In this document: in pieces, positions 3,118 to 35,368 of the stretch | Position numbering within the stretch: the stretch's first letter is position 1 | How the letters are laid out: the number at the start of each line of letters is the position of its first letter | Source: a virus | IMG/VR virus record: IMGVR_UViG_3300035038_000021 | Location: 1 to 35,368 of that record | Length of the DNA stretch: 35,368 nucleotides | Reading direction: 5' to 3' (one strand) | Made by a program: the position numbers and the translations under genes | Notes under the pieces: model-generated | What the model was told of the DNA's origin: nothing | The model's database searches: none | Seen by the model: the letters and a program-made list of their open reading frames with translations, nothing else

Positions 3118-3369
3118 GTGATGAAGATGAGCAACAAATACACAAATCCAAACCAAGACTACATGGAAAGCAGGCCAGATGGATCTTTTCTAATCTGGGA
3201 AAACGAACCATTGATGGATGCGCTTCTGTATAGTTTTCCAGGAAAATACACTCCTATGACGGAGGAAGCAAAACTACAGCATGATGCTATTGTGTTGTGG
3301 GAACGGGAATGCGACAACCAAATACCAGACCCGACTTATGAATTGTCTCCAATATCAATGGAGGCTTAA
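3118..3369 (+). CDS. Hypothetical protein
   Basis: First ORF of the plus-strand block; no recognisable motif. Confidence 0.55.
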   Translation: MMKMSNKYTNPNQDYMESRPDGSFLIWENEPLMDALLYSFPGKYTPMTEEAKLQHDAIVLWERECDNQIPDPTYELSPISMEA

Positions 3370-3378
3370 TTTCTTTTT

Positions 3379-3481
3379 GCCGGAGTTGGGAACATGTGCA
3401 TACTCCATTCTATCATTTCCTGTTGGACTCCCTCCAATCAAACACTCCTGCACATTGTGGGTTCAACTCCCGCATCCGGCG
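3379..3481 (+). ncRNA. tRNA-like element (acceptor stem and T-arm, no canonical D or anticodon arm)
   Basis: GCCGGA (3379-3384) pairs with TCCGGC (3475-3480); T-arm GTGGG-TTCAACT-CCCGC (3457-3473); internal stem ATGTGCA/TGCACAT; intergenic. Confidence 0.45.
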
Positions 3482-3533
3482 TAACCTGCATCAATCCAGT
3501 TGGTGTAGGGATATTATCTAAGGAATGATATGT

Positions 3534-3902
3534 ATGGAAAAATTAAAACAAGAAGAATATTTCGAAATGAAAATGTCTGCGATTCGGAGCCTACAGGCGA
3601 AACTTGCTGACGCATGTGCAGACATCGACAAACAGATAGAAGAACTTATGCAGCGGCGCAAGGAAATTGCAAGTCCAATTGAAGATAAAATAGCATACGA
3701 AGAAGAGCAACTCAAAAAAACCGCACTCGGCTACTCTCACTCCTACAAAGGTGAACTGGGGGAGATCAAATACAGGAAGGGCTACGAAAGGAAATCCTGG
3801 GATACAAAGAAACTCGAAGGCTACGCAGCAGACCATCCTGAAATTATGCATTTCCAGAAGATCACGCAGGTTTCCCCAAATGTTTCTATCAAAATATACT
3901 AA
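3534..3902 (+). CDS. Coiled-coil protein, Gam/Gp157-like
   Basis: Long N-terminal coiled coil followed by GEIKYRK...SWD; directly upstream of Bet; start moved to the ATG with an AAGGA RBS. Confidence 0.45.
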   Translation: MEKLKQEEYFEMKMSAIRSLQAKLADACADIDKQIEELMQRRKEIASPIEDKIAYEEEQLKKTALGYSHSYKGELGEIKYRKGYERKSWDTKKLEGYAADHPEIMHFQKITQVSPNVSIKIY

Positions 3903-3914
3903 GGACTGATACAC

Positions 3915-4664
3915 ATGTCAGAAGAAATCGAAAAATTAACACAAGACCAGAGGTTACAAGTCATGAACCTCATGGAACAAGAAGAGATATCCAAGGACAA
4001 GGCCATTGCTCGTGTCGTAGGTGAGCCGTACACTCCTGATATGGAGACTATCGATGTAAGCCAGCCGGCAGAAGAACCAGAACCAAAGCAGGGAAGTAAT
4101 ACAGAGGTTGCAATACAACAAAACAACCAGATACTACCGGAAAGGCAGGTATCAGAAATCACAATGGGAGATATCAAGGACTATATTTGCCCACAGGCCA
4201 CAGAAAAGGAAGCGTACATGTTCCTCAAACTGTGCCAGGCAAGGAATCTTAACCCATTCACAAAAGAAGCATACCTCCTGAAATATGGTGGCAAAGATGC
4301 GACTATGGTTGTGGGAAAGGATGCATTCACCAGACGTGCCGAAGAACATCCACAGTTCGATGGATTTCAGGCAGGAATTATAGTTGTGAACAATCCTTCA
4401 GGCGACATAGAGAGACGTGAGGGAACTTTCACATTACAAGATGAGGTAATAGTAGGAGGATGGTCTAAAGTCTACAGGAAAGACCGCTCTGTGCCTTATG
4501 TGAATGAAGTATCAATGCATGAGTATGATACAGGCAAATCCTCATGGGCAAAGATGCCAGCGACAATGATACGAAAGGTTGCACTTGTCCAGTCTTTGAG
4601 AGAGGCATTCCCCAGTGAACTTGGAGGATGCTACGATTCCAGCGAAAGGGGCGTGGAGTTGTGA
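3915..4664 (+). CDS. bet: Single-strand annealing recombinase, Bet/RecT family
   Basis: FLKLCQARNLNPFTKEAYLLKY, GKDAFTRRA and W...PATMIRKVALVQSLREAF. Confidence 0.9.
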   Translation: MSEEIEKLTQDQRLQVMNLMEQEEISKDKAIARVVGEPYTPDMETIDVSQPAEEPEPKQGSNTEVAIQQNNQILPERQVSEITMGDIKDYICPQATEKEAYMFLKLCQARNLNPFTKEAYLLKYGGKDATMVVGKDAFTRRAEEHPQFDGFQAGIIVVNNPSGDIERREGTFTLQDEVIVGGWSKVYRKDRSVPYVNEVSMHEYDTGKSSWAKMPATMIRKVALVQSLREAFPSELGGCYDSSERGVEL

Positions 4665-4882
4665 GGATCACAATAAAAGAGGATTCCGAAATCCTCCCTC
4701 TTTCAGTTTTCAATATTAAAGACTGGTTCTGCGAGAAAGAGGAAATCAAAACCAGGGAAGCAACTATCGAACACGAAACCGAGAAAGCATACCTGTTCAA
4801 TGTCGGCGAAGAACAGCAATGGATTCCAAAATCAGTATGTAAAGAAGTGAAAACAGAAACGGCAAATCTGGCACAATTCTAA
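4661..4882 (+). CDS. Small beta-rich hypothetical protein (GTG start)
   Basis: GTGA overlap with the bet stop; ETEKAYL...WIPKS motif. Confidence 0.6.
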   Translation: MRITIKEDSEILPLSVFNIKDWFCEKEEIKTREATIEHETEKAYLFNVGEEQQWIPKSVCKEVKTETANLAQF

Positions 4883-4893
4883 GGAGGCACACA

Positions 4894-5121
4894 ATGGCAA
4901 AACAAGAGAACGTATTCTACGTGAATGACAGCACCGATCCAGAAATACCTGCATCGAAACTCTACAGCACTCCGTCAATGGAGTCAGTACTCGGTGAATC
5001 TTACTCCTTCAATACGGACAACGGACTGGTTGAACTTATCGGGCTTGGAGTAATTGAATATACCGACACTTCCCGATTAGTAGAGGAAGCAAACGCCCGC
5101 ATGTTGAGGCTTGGTATCTAA
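4894..5121 (+). CDS. Hypothetical protein
   Basis: AGGAGG RBS; in operon. Confidence 0.65.
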   Translation: MAKQENVFYVNDSTDPEIPASKLYSTPSMESVLGESYSFNTDNGLVELIGLGVIEYTDTSRLVEEANARMLRLGI

Positions 5122-5297
5122 TGTCAGACTCAGACAATATCGAAGGGCTTTGTGATTGTATCTGCCGACAGGTTGCAGAAATCAAAGTAAACGTGCAAGA
5201 CATATCCCGAACTGATGAAATAAGAATATGTCAAGCACAAGAAATACTTGCTGAAGTAGTGGGCGAAGTATCTCCAATTACATGGAGTGATGACTGA
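5121..5297 (+). CDS. Hypothetical protein, 58 aa (not in ORF track)
   Basis: Translated by hand; TAATG and TGATG 1-nt overlaps at both ends. Confidence 0.6.
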   Translation: MSDSDNIEGLCDCICRQVAEIKVNVQDISRTDEIRICQAQEILAEVVGEVSPITWSDD

Positions 5298-5572
5298 TGG
5301 GAGATAAAAAGGAGAAACAACCCCGGCACCCATTTTTAGAAGTTAATGGGTTTGCGTGCTATGCTGACTCAATGTCATACACACTCAATCATCCCAATGG
5401 TAGAACCACATATTACAACTCAATTGAAAACATGTTCAAAAGCCTTGATGCAGCAATACTTCGTGACAAACTTCGCAACCCTTCTAATGAAACCAGCGTT
5501 TCGGCATTAGTAGATACTATCAGAAAGCACAATGCTGAAATGCAAGAAATATTGGGAGGTTTGAAGGTATGA
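5297..5572 (+). CDS. Hypothetical protein
   Basis: Coupled overlaps at both ends. Confidence 0.65.
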   Translation: MGDKKEKQPRHPFLEVNGFACYADSMSYTLNHPNGRTTYYNSIENMFKSLDAAILRDKLRNPSNETSVSALVDTIRKHNAEMQEILGGLKV

Positions 5573-5661
5573 GAGCCACAGCCGGAGAACTTCGCAAGAG
5601 AGTGCCAGCATACCGCATTCGCCAGATACGCAACATGCTTACGGTGTATGGGTGGTCGTGA
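5569..5661 (+). CDS. Basic 30-aa peptide (not in ORF track)
   Basis: ATGA and TGATG overlaps exactly fill the gap; GGAGG upstream. Confidence 0.5.
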   Translation: MRATAGELRKRVPAYRIRQIRNMLTVYGWS

Positions 5662-6341
5662 TGGGCAAAACCAAATCCCATTATGAATATGCAGCCGAGA
5701 TAGAGGAACTCTGGAATGCTGGTGAGACTGGAGACAAACTATGGAGAAAGGTTGAGAAATGGGCAGAGAGAGTGCCACTCCACTTTTTTGTAGCATCAAA
5801 TGAGCAGAAACCCTATACTGCCGAGGAATTAGGTTATCCCTGCGAATCCATGCCTCTGAAAAAGGAAACTGGCGTACAGCAGACAGGAGACTATCATTGC
5901 TATCTGCCTGACTATGACTGCCATACCGGTCTAATCTGGGAGAGAAAGGAACTATCCGATTTCTATTCCACCCTGGTACATGGCCGGGACAGGTTCTTCA
6001 GGGAATGTCAGAGAGCCGTGGACAATCCCAGCATCGACTATATGATGATTGGTATTGAGGGCACAAGCGAGAAGTTCATGAAGTACAAGCCTGCAGGAAA
6101 TCCAGGGGCACATCCGGCAGCCAGAGCAGGAATGGTTGAATGCCTACAAGCCCGATTTGATTATAGAATAATCCCCAGATGGCATGGTGGCAGAAAATAT
6201 GCCATAAGGGGATTAATTAAGCAGAATAGATTATGGATAAAATATCATTTCGCAAGTGTACTGAAACTAAAAGGTCATGAAAATGAAGGAGTTATAAGAA
6301 ATGAATACCGCAGCGAAGAGGCATCCATTTCCACCACATAA
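5661..6341 (+). CDS. ERCC4/XPF-family structure-specific nuclease
   Basis: SNEQKPY, TGDY and ERKELSDF...RFFRE match the ERCC4 catalytic motifs. Confidence 0.8.
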   Translation: MGKTKSHYEYAAEIEELWNAGETGDKLWRKVEKWAERVPLHFFVASNEQKPYTAEELGYPCESMPLKKETGVQQTGDYHCYLPDYDCHTGLIWERKELSDFYSTLVHGRDRFFRECQRAVDNPSIDYMMIGIEGTSEKFMKYKPAGNPGAHPAARAGMVECLQARFDYRIIPRWHGGRKYAIRGLIKQNRLWIKYHFASVLKLKGHENEGVIRNEYRSEEASISTT

Positions 6342-16281: not shown

Positions 16282-16596
16282 TTAATCCAAATCTTCTTCA
16301 TTTATCTTCGTTGCTTTAGCAAAATTCAAAACTTCTGCTTTGTTTTGATTAATGTATGCTCGCAACTTGTTTTTTGTATCAATTGTAACAGTCACTCCGT
16401 CTGTACTTGTATATTCCTTTGGGAAAGTCCACCAGAACGCAGTCTCATCGTATTTGTATATCGTCTGTTCTTCTTCGGTCATCTCGTCAATGCGAGTGAC
16501 GGTTTCCAGATTCCAGCGGACGAGCAATCGAGCACGCCCGTTCTTAATTTTGTCAATGTAAATTTCCTGTGGTTGTATTGTTGATTGTACTTTCAT
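16282..16596 (-). CDS. Hypothetical fibre-associated protein (start refined to MKVQST)
   Basis: AGGTGA RBS; directly follows the fibre gene. Confidence 0.6.
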   Translation of the reverse strand: MKVQSTIQPQEIYIDKIKNGRARLLVRWNLETVTRIDEMTEEEQTIYKYDETAFWWTFPKEYTSTDGVTVTIDTKNKLRAYINQNKAEVLNFAKATKINEEDLD

Positions 16597-16608
16597 AATA
16601 ATCACCTA

Positions 16609-18396
16609 TCATGGGATAAACTCGAAGCGAGCGCCGAGACTCCGATTCGAATACGAAGACCCGTTAGCCGAATTCAGAGAACCGACCCCCGCAAGCGACC
16701 CGTCAATCCAAGTCCCGCCGGAGAGCAGAATGTTTGTTTCTCCTGCATCATGGACATAGAAGTAGTCGCACAAATACGTTGAACTACTGCCTGCGGTCTC
16801 TGAACCTATCATTAGATATTGAAGCAGATTTTCGGTCTCTACATCGGATTGATACCCATCTCCAGCGGTTGGGGGAGTAACGATACTTGCTTCGTATTCT
16901 CCTGCGGCAAGGTCACCTGCCAGAACACCCGTGCCGTCTCGTTTGCTGATTCTGTATTCTGCATCGACTGCTGTATATCCAATACAGAATTTCCACACAT
17001 TTCCCCAGAGGTTCTCCAATCCACGATATGCAATCGGAGTATATCCATCTGAGCCTGTGCCGGTGCCTGTACCATTAATTCCGACATTCGAATCTATGGA
17101 GTCTGCCCCTGTCAGTTCGCCGGCAAACCCAGTACCAGCATCTAAATCTACTACACCCCTGCCAAGTGCGGTTTGACTGTCCAAACTACCCATTTCAGTA
17201 TAGAACAATAACCGGATTGCAGACATTGTCCAGATATTCATACACCCGTATCCGCTACCGATATTGTTTGCATACAATTCAGCGTCATCTATCGTAAATC
17301 TGCCCGAGTTTGGCAAATCAGGGTAACCGACATTGCCTGTAACAGGTTGTTTTCCTGTAGCGGATTGTAGTTTGAATGTGGTATCCAGAATTCCTGATGC
17401 TTCATATGCAGAAATGAACATTTCCGGTACTTCTACTCCACCTCTCATACGTGTATTTGGGAATCTCTCAAATCCTGACAATCTTACAGGTGATAACCAA
17501 ATCCTAATGTATCTACTATCTGCATAATATTTAACATCAAATGCAGGCAACCTTACCATTACATTACCAGATGCACCTGTAAGGTCAAGTCCATCGCCTC
17601 TAGGATTGCTTCCATAAGTAACTTCACCTGTTGCAGGATCAATTACACACCGCCAAATATTTCCCCATATAGCATGGTTATCAAAAAATGATGTATCTGG
17701 ATTGATGGTATTACCATTAATATCAATTTGCCTCAATGACGGTGAACTACTGTCCCTATCCCATTCAAATCCAACAGGCATCATACTCTGGAGTGTTCCA
17801 ACATCATCCATTGTAGCAAAGGGATTGGTACTTGATGGAGTATTTGCACCACTTAATGCTGCTTTTTCATCAGGAGTAGGATCATTTGCATTGGTATGAT
17901 GATCTGTTGCACCGACATTAATTAAATCAGTATGAGAACCACTGAAGTAATTATGAGAAGCATTAGTAGCGTGATTTGTATCTCCATTTATTGCGGTGAT
18001 TGCTTCACTATCGGTATATTTAGCATGATGGGCATCAGTAGCGGAAATATGAGAGTCTATTCGGGGATTAATTCCGTAAGTTGGATCTTCAAACGTGCCT
18101 GCAGTGATAAGTAGCGCCACCATATTTCCTGCCGGATGGCTCGTGTCGGGTGTTTCTTCTTTGCCTCTTGTTACAGTGAGTGTATCTGTGGATTTCGCGG
18201 TTACTTCCACGATCTCAGCGTTGGGATCATCACCGGGAGATGAATGTATATCATAATCCCATATCGTCACCCTGTATGGAAATGAATCAGGAAATAGTAC
18301 CCCTTCTCCTGCTGCTAATGTGACTGTACTATCTCCGGTATTCACATCTGATGCGAGGTTGGATACGGCGTTGTTTGTATAGTGGAAAGGGGTCAT
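16609..18396 (-). CDS. Fibre/receptor-binding protein with C-terminal FGE-type C-type lectin domain
   Basis: GLENLWGNVWKF...GGTW...GARF C-terminus typical of CLec DGR targets; His-rich stalk. Confidence 0.75.
   Translation of the reverse strand: MTPFHYTNNAVSNLASDVNTGDSTVTLAAGEGVLFPDSFPYRVTIWDYDIHSSPGDDPNAEIVEVTAKSTDTLTVTRGKEETPDTSHPAGNMVALLITAGTFEDPTYGINPRIDSHISATDAHHAKYTDSEAITAINGDTNHATNASHNYFSGSHTDLINVGATDHHTNANDPTPDEKAALSGANTPSSTNPFATMDDVGTLQSMMPVGFEWDRDSSSPSLRQIDINGNTINPDTSFFDNHAIWGNIWRCVIDPATGEVTYGSNPRGDGLDLTGASGNVMVRLPAFDVKYYADSRYIRIWLSPVRLSGFERFPNTRMRGGVEVPEMFISAYEASGILDTTFKLQSATGKQPVTGNVGYPDLPNSGRFTIDDAELYANNIGSGYGCMNIWTMSAIRLLFYTEMGSLDSQTALGRGVVDLDAGTGFAGELTGADSIDSNVGINGTGTGTGSDGYTPIAYRGLENLWGNVWKFCIGYTAVDAEYRISKRDGTGVLAGDLAAGEYEASIVTPPTAGDGYQSDVETENLLQYLMIGSETAGSSSTYLCDYFYVHDAGETNILLSGGTWIDGSLAGVGSLNSANGSSYSNRSLGARFEFIP
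16615..16734 (-). other. DGR-type variable region (orphan)
   Basis: 40 consecutive codons with no third-position A at the CLec C-terminus; no template repeat or RT seen in the window. Confidence 0.6.
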
Positions 18397-34753: not shown

Positions 34754-34845
34754 TTCTTACAACTCCCATAACTATTTCTTAGTATTATAGTATAATATAT
34801 TACTCATATATATGCTTTGTGTATATTATCATATATATAGCGTAT

Positions 34846-34960
34846 ATCTCTAAAATCTCTCTCTATATCTCTCTCTATAAAGATATAATATAATATAATA
34901 TAATATACCATCTTAGAGAGAGACTCTAAGAGATATTTATCTCCACTTGAAATAGAGGTA
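34846..34960. other. Putative replication origin 2 or ORB-containing control region
   Basis: (CT)n tracts, (TAATA)n and TCCACTTGAAAT at 34942-34953; inverted homologue of part of 21303-21375. Confidence 0.6.
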
Positions 34961-35089
34961 TATATTGTATATCGAACTATGTCCTATTTTGCAGCACCTC
35001 CGGTCAAATATGTCATAGAATAATCGCAATTCAGGATGAGGTATAAGCGAAAACAAAAAATATGTCGGACAATATAGAATTGTCCTCAT

Positions 35090-35191
35090 TTAGGGGGAAT
35101 CGGAATCTAAAAAACGATTCAACTTCTGCTTTGCTTCCCTTGCTCTAATGTAATCCCTGATTACAGGTAAGTTCTTTATAAAATCAAACAT
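35090..35191 (-). CDS. 33-aa peptide (MFDFIKNLPV...)
   Basis: GGAGG RBS; translated by hand; followed by a degenerate boundary repeat. Confidence 0.4.
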   Translation of the reverse strand: MFDFIKNLPVIRDYIRAREAKQKLNRFLDSDSP

Positions 35192-35241
35192 TTAGTTTCC
35201 TCCCAGTTCAGTATATTTCGCCATCTTCTGTTTCCATTATG

Positions 35242-35368
35242 CTCATTCTGTTGTCCTCCTTATCCATTTCAAATAATATTCTTTCTCAATTTTCAGGTCC
35301 TCTAATCTCCGTACAGCTCCCGAAACTCCCACATATCGGTTACATTTGCCACATCTGTTGCACATTTG
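35242..35368. repeat. 127-nt exact repeat, copy 2 (contig end)
   Basis: Identical to 481-607. Confidence 0.95.

Follow-up and report, generated by a model that had tools for sequence, protein, structure and literature searches.

The tail-fibre gene of an archaeal virus ends in a stretch that resembles the variable region (VR) of a diversity-generating retroelement (DGR), and no retroelement stands next to it. Is the stretch a genuine DGR target, does the virus as a whole lack the machinery that would rewrite it, and is the target frozen or still rewritten by a template carried in another genome? We addressed these questions in the 35,368-nt sequence of IMG/VR record IMGVR_UViG_3300035038_000021 (hereafter the window), starting from an earlier note that had been made from the sequence alone, and compared the locus with related viruses. 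The features discussed are collected in Table 1.

Table 1. Features of the window at and around the fibre gene, and the terminal repeat of the genome
Feature	Position	Strand	Basis
Tail-fibre/receptor-binding gene P0001, DGR target protein	16609..18396	minus	ORF and translation, 595 aa
N-terminal fibre module, aa 1-202, exchangeable	17791..18396	minus	Matches to tail-fibre PHROGs 6427/8469/30299
C-terminal Mtd/TaqVP-like C-type-lectin (FGE-type) domain with the VR at its end (predicted)	16612..17790	minus	Profile and Foldseek
DGR variable region (VR), 110 nt, identified by comparison	16622..16731	minus	Match to the TR of relatives and A depletion
Invariant 3' VR block and last codons, putative IMH location	16612..16636	minus	Identical in 17/17 VRs
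Empty cassette site, 12-nt spacer with GGTGAT ribosome-binding site	16597..16608	minus	Between target stop codon and next gene
Downstream 104-aa gene, cassette-less ("clean") allele	16282..16596	minus	Orthologue (70% aa) of a gene that the RT precedes in L006
Terminal redundancy, one full turn of the 34,761-bp genome	478..607 = 35239-35368		99.2% identical repeat

An A-Poor Fibre Tip Matches the Template of Related Viruses

The last 40 sense codons of the fibre gene (AAC...ATC, 16734-16615) were claimed in the earlier note to lack A at the third position, and this was borne out: the count is 0 of 40, compared with 31.2% in the other 554 codons of the gene, and the chance of such a run, (1-f)^40, is ~3e-7. 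Within the fibre gene, the second-longest run free of third-position A has 17 codons, and genome-wide, runs as long or longer are found only in antisense frames with a low frequency of third-position A (0.09-0.12). The 110-nt core contains 13 A, whereas the coding-strand mean for the genome is 34.7 +/- 6.6 per 110 nt. The alternation of fixed and NNY codons described in the note is also real and agrees with the template found in relatives, where the variable codons are AAT, AAC, TAT, and ATC. The A-poor NNY pattern is real and lies far beyond chance.

For comparison, we used an initial set of nine related loci from IMG/VR, which pattern scans enlarged to 17 distinct VRs at the DNA level. In the relatives L006 and L007, a second, AAT/AAC-rich copy of the stretch lies ~470 nt downstream; an RT is adjacent to it in L006. 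The window VR differs from the template repeat (TR) of L006, L007, and L031 at 22 of 110 positions, and 21 of these are among the 33 adenines of the TR (hypergeometric P 3.6e-13); the single difference outside adenines is the first base, with 76 of the 77 non-A positions identical. The sequence of the window VR is that expected from adenine-mutagenic reverse transcription of the sister-virus TR. Outside the adenine positions, all 17 VRs are near-perfect copies of the TR. The C-termini of the relatives vary at the codons of the window's VR while their scaffold residues are fixed, and variation at these same codons is seen both in the 17 VRs at the DNA level and in dozens of cases at the protein level within 90% clusters. 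The diversity of third codon positions drops from 0.3-0.4 upstream to 0-0.01 within the VR, with a sharp edge that is retained when only the genomes without a cassette or its remains (the "clean" genomes described below) are considered, and synonymous third positions within the VR are invariant across genomes whose flanks have diverged by ~20%.

Because 21 of the 22 differences from the relatives' TR fall on template adenines, we identify 16622-16731 as a genuine DGR variable region from these sequence comparisons, in line with the target signature that the note had recognized. The interval 16615-16734 given there holds for the codon run free of third-position A, but the core homologous to the TR is narrower.

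The 3' end of the VR belongs to a block shared by all copies (Table 1), and the TR departs from this block immediately after ...CTTCGAG. In Bordetella phage BPP-1, the IMH is at the 3' end of the VR and is followed by a stem-loop. The invariant block of the window may similarly function in homing. The block contains only a 4-bp CTCG/CGAG mini-hairpin. No hairpin is conserved downstream of the VR in either cassette-bearing or cassette-less copies, and a search of the window gave no convincing downstream hairpin, in agreement with the note, which had seen none.

The Fibre Is Modular and Carries a Predicted C-Type-Lectin Tip

Residues 203-595 of the fibre protein P0001 matched PHROG 5302, annotated "tail protein" (E 1.4e-51), and residues 1-185 matched tail-fibre PHROGs 6427/8469, while Pfam called no domains on the protein. 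We found 390 homologues of P0001 in a large protein collection, many of them with the Pfam domain Mtd_N (PF18454) of the Bordetella phage DGR target. This domain is present in the 430-457-aa homologues and in the target protein of L006 but absent from P0001, the N terminus of which is formed by another fibre module. A profile of the C-terminal domain matched one solved structure, PDB 5VF4, and a Foldseek search with an AlphaFold model of the domain (pLDDT 76, pTM 0.86) gave TaqVP as the best hit (3e-11), followed by Mtd (4e-4), FGE, and TvpA. The C-terminal domain is accordingly modelled with the CLec/FGE-type fold of DGR variable proteins, the VR lying in its C-terminal part, and the best structural matches are those expected from the FGE-type CLec fold that the note had proposed. 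The note had also looked to A-avoidance in non-DGR homologues as evidence against its reading; this comparison does not apply, since those homologues, too, are targets of DGRs.

The remaining genes of the window are those of a head-tail archaeal virus and include an MCM helicase, a terminase, and a tape measure. Distant homologues of the fibre domain are found on contigs assigned to Methanoculleus sp. UBA77 (L040), a Methanomethylophilaceae MAG (L038), and Methanogenium cariaci (L042), and in both L038 and L040, a TR-like copy with adenine-specific differences lies near the VR. The presence of fibre-domain homologues on methanogen contigs points to methanogens as the hosts of this virus group.

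As a separate observation, two forms of the fibre coexist in one population, the 595-aa form of the window and a 430-aa form (P0005), and the two differ in their N-terminal modules. Assembly breaks recur inside the fibre gene at ~17623-17873; this seam is 251 nt long and is 92% identical between the fibre forms.

The Genome Is Complete and Lacks the Retroelement

The IMG/VR record classes the window as linear, with a CheckV completeness of ~70%. Nevertheless, the window is a complete, circularly permuted genome of 34.8 kb. This follows from the repeat at its ends (Table 1), from a second, independent contig of this virus (35,057 nt), which comes from another sample and has the same 34,761-bp period with both of its ends inside the fibre gene, and from contig L049, which physically joins 968->478 to 35368->34343 and thereby bridges both window ends. 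As the genome is complete, the lack of an RT and a template applies to the whole virus.

This lack was apparent in all searches and agrees with the earlier note, which had seen no RT, accessory gene, or TR. A six-frame search of the window with RVT_1 gave no match at E values up to 1, and tblastn searches with the L006 RT and with the small ORF of L006 found no homologue of either. A TR was found neither with a generic repeat finder nor with an adenine-tolerant scan of both strands; the latter detected only the VR itself, the next best site having 42 non-A mismatches. An RT is also absent from the whole records of five relatives. Two complete relatives with direct terminal repeats, G001 and G004, contain one VR each and neither TR nor RT, and the whole records of L002 and L009 have terminal repeats and a single VR without TR or RT. 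The note had suggested searching for the template in the metagenome and in host genomes. No match to the exact pattern was found in 185,579 species genomes, and a protein-guided host scan retrieved only more distant homologues on Methanomethylophilaceae, Methanoculleus, and Methanogenium contigs and on some further contigs that are probably mis-binned; the TR was found in sister viruses instead. Of the components of a complete DGR, the window has the VR and the fold of the variable protein only, and RT, TR, and accessory gene are missing. The term "orphan" is thus literal for this VR, a target without a retroelement in a complete genome.

Apart from this, we noted that positions 1-477 of the window have no counterpart one period later (34762-35238) despite the circular permutation. 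The slot is polymorphic in the population and is occupied in other contigs by a phage integrase (L050) or by small genes beyond a 61-aa zinc-finger-like gene (482-667).

Sister Viruses Show the Cassette Intact, Scarred, and Absent

In L006, the target gene with Mtd_N (3133-4485) is followed by a 101-aa ORF (4499-4804), the TR (~4831-4940), and the RT (4983-6119). RTs of the DGR clade carry the motif [I/L/V]GxxxSQ and a YxDD box; the L006 protein matches RVT_1 (1e-18) and has the hallmarks IGNYLSQ and YCDD. The small ORF is in the position of avd but had no match in Pfam or NCBIfam and is not recognizable as Avd; it may represent a new kind of DGR accessory protein. In L006, L007, and L031, the small ORF, the TR, and the RT occupy exactly the space that separates the fibre gene from the orthologue of the 104-aa gene, and the interval that corresponds to the 12-nt spacer of the window measures ~1.6 kb in L006. 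No remnant of the small ORF or the RT is found at the window junction, and the junction of L037 is identical to it.

The 17 VRs fall into three classes by the state of the cassette: it is present in three (L006, L007, and L031), has left independent deletion scars in three (L009, L008, and L002), and is missing with a clean junction in 11 (the window and ten others). In the scar of L009, codons 1-19 of the small ORF are fused to codons 360-378 of the RT, while L008 retains small-ORF codons 1-46 and L002 just the first few; L031, a sibling of L002, retains the 1.57 kb that L002 has lost. In the clean genomes, the 110-nt core and the start of the next gene are 23-29 nt apart, and in 10 of the 10 that reach this start, the encoded protein begins with MKVQSTIQ... 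(MVQSTIQ... in L005). Cassette-bearing and scarred genomes have another 5' allele, ...ESTIEP..., which is ~40% diverged from the clean allele in the first 30 nt. Because the 5' allele of the next gene is common to all ten, the clean junction is one old allele and not many fresh deletions. The comparison of these junctions indicates an on-and-off presence of the cassette across the group.

The 104-aa gene itself shows a further regularity in that its 5' alleles (16561-16596, with starts in 15 loci) track the history of the cassette exactly, while the remainder of the gene is mosaic. Its single family match is a weak S1-like Pfam hit below the threshold.

The Window VR Is Probably Frozen

We then asked whether the VR still changes. 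The consensus assemblies compared, which cannot reveal minority variants, show no VR differences within the window strain: the same VR is present in the five members of its 90% protein cluster, in L011, and in another five contigs drawn from five runs, all ~100% identical to the window. Among the cassette-less or scarred protein clusters with at least two members each, the VR is invariant in 6 of 7; P0010 and P0195, for example, share one VR although 21 differences separate them elsewhere. As a positive control, L006 and L007, both with the cassette, have identical flanks but differ at eight adenine sites. Other protein clusters are hypervariable, nearly every member having a different VR. The exception among the cassette-less clusters comprises P0026, P0132, and P0135, the scaffolds of which are identical (0 differences outside the VR) while their VRs have 7-11 differences; their junction is presumed to be of the clean type from the protein ending ...IPQR.

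Considering that the window-strain assemblies all have the same VR, that most other cassette-less lineages are static, and that cassette-bearing strains vary between samples, we regard it as probable that the window VR is now frozen and that the cassette has been lost or swapped out. The earlier note had offered a relic and a target diversified in trans; these were the right alternatives, and the data favour a copy that is now frozen. The VR would have received its sequence in an ancestor or recombination partner that carried the cassette, after which the genome would have acquired or retained the widespread cassette-less junction allele, and the fibre tip would now be an ordinary, fixed receptor-binding surface on a C-type-lectin fold. 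In the group as a whole, the cassette would be a dispensable module that is deleted or swapped in and out via recombination around the VR.

The VRs of the clean genomes suggest a more dynamic past. The 11 clean-junction VRs differ among themselves at ~70% of the variable adenine sites but have only 0-3 mismatches to the TR at the 77 non-adenine positions (0-2 when the variable first base is excluded). Being TR-like yet diverse beside an old allele, they were written from this template well after the clean allele arose and thus were not frozen at its origin. Two routes fit such later writing: cDNA may have homed in trans when viruses co-infected a cell, or the conserved ends of the VR may have served for recombination with genomes that carry the cassette. 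Recombination is common in the group, and the trees of the upstream and downstream segments are discordant; used as a record of the order of events, these trees gave mosaicism only and no clean order. Furthermore, a linkage test between retrohoming and recombination does not discriminate, as the upstream flank is itself not coupled to the downstream one (Mantel r 0.06). P0128, a protein with the clean-type ending, differs from the L006 target by just two residues outside the VR. Over a longer time scale, fresh VRs must have reached the cassette-less genomes from the pool of genomes with the cassette.

Alternative Explanations

Under the main alternative, the VR is still a live target and is occasionally rewritten in trans by a co-resident cassette-bearing relative or provirus, the RT and TR RNA of which would provide mutagenized cDNA that homes into the VR, with the invariant 3' block kept for homing. 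We consider this unlikely for the window. Several patterns are those that homing in trans would leave: VRs beside the old cassette-less allele are TR-perfect off the adenines and near saturation at the adenines, the edges of the conserved island are sharp and coincide with the TR ends, and 16 of 33 adenine sites differ between the window and L037 despite a 25-nt junction that is identical in both. However, with the flanks uncoupled, recombination at the conserved ends of the VR can explain the pattern without cDNA. The three proteins of the P0026 cluster, identical outside the VR and different within it, also agree with rewriting in trans, although their junction type is read from the protein ending. 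The means could be at hand, as cassette-bearing relatives are present in same-series sample numbers and in laboratory work, avd-TR-brt acts in trans from a plasmid (Wu et al. 2018, PMC5758913), but no hairpin is conserved downstream of the VR, the window-strain VR is identical in every assembly from several samples, and six of the seven cassette-less clusters are static. A related and, to us, doubtful proposal is that the DGR cassette acts as a shared good among these methanogen-associated viruses, such that a minority of genomes carry RT and template while cassette-less genomes keep a homing-competent VR that is rewritten in co-infection; if true, most lineages would gain receptor-binding diversity without the cost of the retroelement.

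The remaining explanations are far less probable. That the RT and TR are located in virus sequence outside the window has in its favour the classification of the record as linear and incomplete, but we consider it highly improbable: two independent contigs have the same period and different break points, a third bridges the ends, RT and TR are likewise missing from the complete genomes of the relatives G001 and G004, and the cassette of relatives always directly follows the target gene. On the strength of the period of the second contig and the L049 bridge, we reject an incomplete genome as the explanation. We give practically no credence to the idea that the A-poor stretch is unrelated to DGRs and stems from the local composition or from selection on codons within a lectin fold. 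Loops rich in Gly, Ser, and Ala do tend to be A-poor, and nothing further speaks for it; the relatives have a real TR with the differences concentrated at its adenines, and synonymous third positions within the VR are invariant across genomes with diverged flanks, and these observations refute the idea.

Template Adenines Between C and G or C Correspond to G in Nearly Every VR

The TR-VR comparisons revealed a further regularity. In the L006-type family, template adenines in the context C-A-G or C-A-C correspond to G in 147 of 153 VR cases, and in four further independent TR-VR pairs (L038, L045, L046, and L047), in 22 of 22. For adenines in C-A-A, G was found in 0 of 6 cases, and other template adenines remain A about half the time, with all four bases occurring. 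One of the affected sites is synonymous, with GCA in the TR and GCG in every VR across four template lineages, and protein selection alone was rejected as the cause on the basis of this site. Effects of the 3' neighbour are known for the BPP-1 bRT, but with only ~30% misincorporation (PMC12875486). Possible causes include an RT-specific, near-obligatory insertion of dC in the C-A-G/C-A-C context, T:G repair at CpG in the cDNA/VR heteroduplex, and tolerated G-to-A decay of the template at CpG. The rule bears on the error choice of DGR RTs and on the integration of the cDNA.

Implications

We conclude that the receptor-binding tip of this archaeal virus tail fibre carries a genuine orphan DGR VR, as judged by its relationship to the sister-virus template, and that the VR is at present most likely frozen. 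The locus provides a clean natural example of a DGR target outliving its retroelement in a complete archaeal virus genome, and at the same site, sister viruses have the whole cassette, one of three distinct deletion scars, or the old allele without a cassette. With cassette-bearing strains varying between samples and cassette-less ones not doing so, the group is a natural experiment in which the costs of targeted hypermutation can be set against its benefits, and a concrete place for asking whether DGRs act between co-infecting viruses. For annotation, A-poor, NNY-patterned C-termini of Mtd-like fibres can be taken as DGR footprints even without an RT.

Comparison with Known Systems

In the open-access text of the literature, we found no report of cassette-less viral genomes with VRs matching the template of a sister virus. 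Among the closest studied systems is the DGR of Bordetella phage BPP-1 (mtd VR - avd - TR - brt), whose mode of action the system shares. The two share a C-terminal VR on a C-type-lectin fold in the tail fibre, and the relatives of the window have the same gene order of target, small ORF, TR, and RT with adenine-specific differences; moreover, homologues of P0001 contain Mtd_N, and Mtd is among the structural matches. Unlike BPP-1, the window holds the target only, with another fibre domain as its N-terminal module, the small ORF of the relatives is not a recognizable Avd, no stem-loop follows the VR, and the host is archaeal. The fibre protein groups with the Mtd/TaqVP variable proteins. The best profile and structural match, TaqVP of Thermus aquaticus (PDB 5VF4), also has the VR at the C-terminal end of the CLec fold, but the identity is 16-17%, and TaqVP is a cellular protein with a DGR of its own.

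In the TvpA paralogues of Treponema denticola, which are remote targets, the VR likewise matches a TR located elsewhere, and action in trans is in principle established; however, these targets share a genome with the RT, whereas the TR matching the window lies in other viruses and the window VR looks static. For phages, Wu et al. (2018, PMC5758913) expected DGRs to be without remote targets, which would not be co-inherited. DGRs occur in viruses of methane-cycling archaea, as exemplified by the ANME virus ANMV-1, and adenine-mutagenized VRs at RT-less loci of Nanoarchaeota were read as fossils or remote targets (Paul et al. 2015, PMC4372165). The window VR resembles these nanoarchaeal fragments in being adenine-mutagenized at an RT-less locus, but they belong to cellular genomes that hold other DGRs, while the window is a complete virus genome without any RT, and its missing cassette is visible, whole or scarred, at the same site in its sister viruses.
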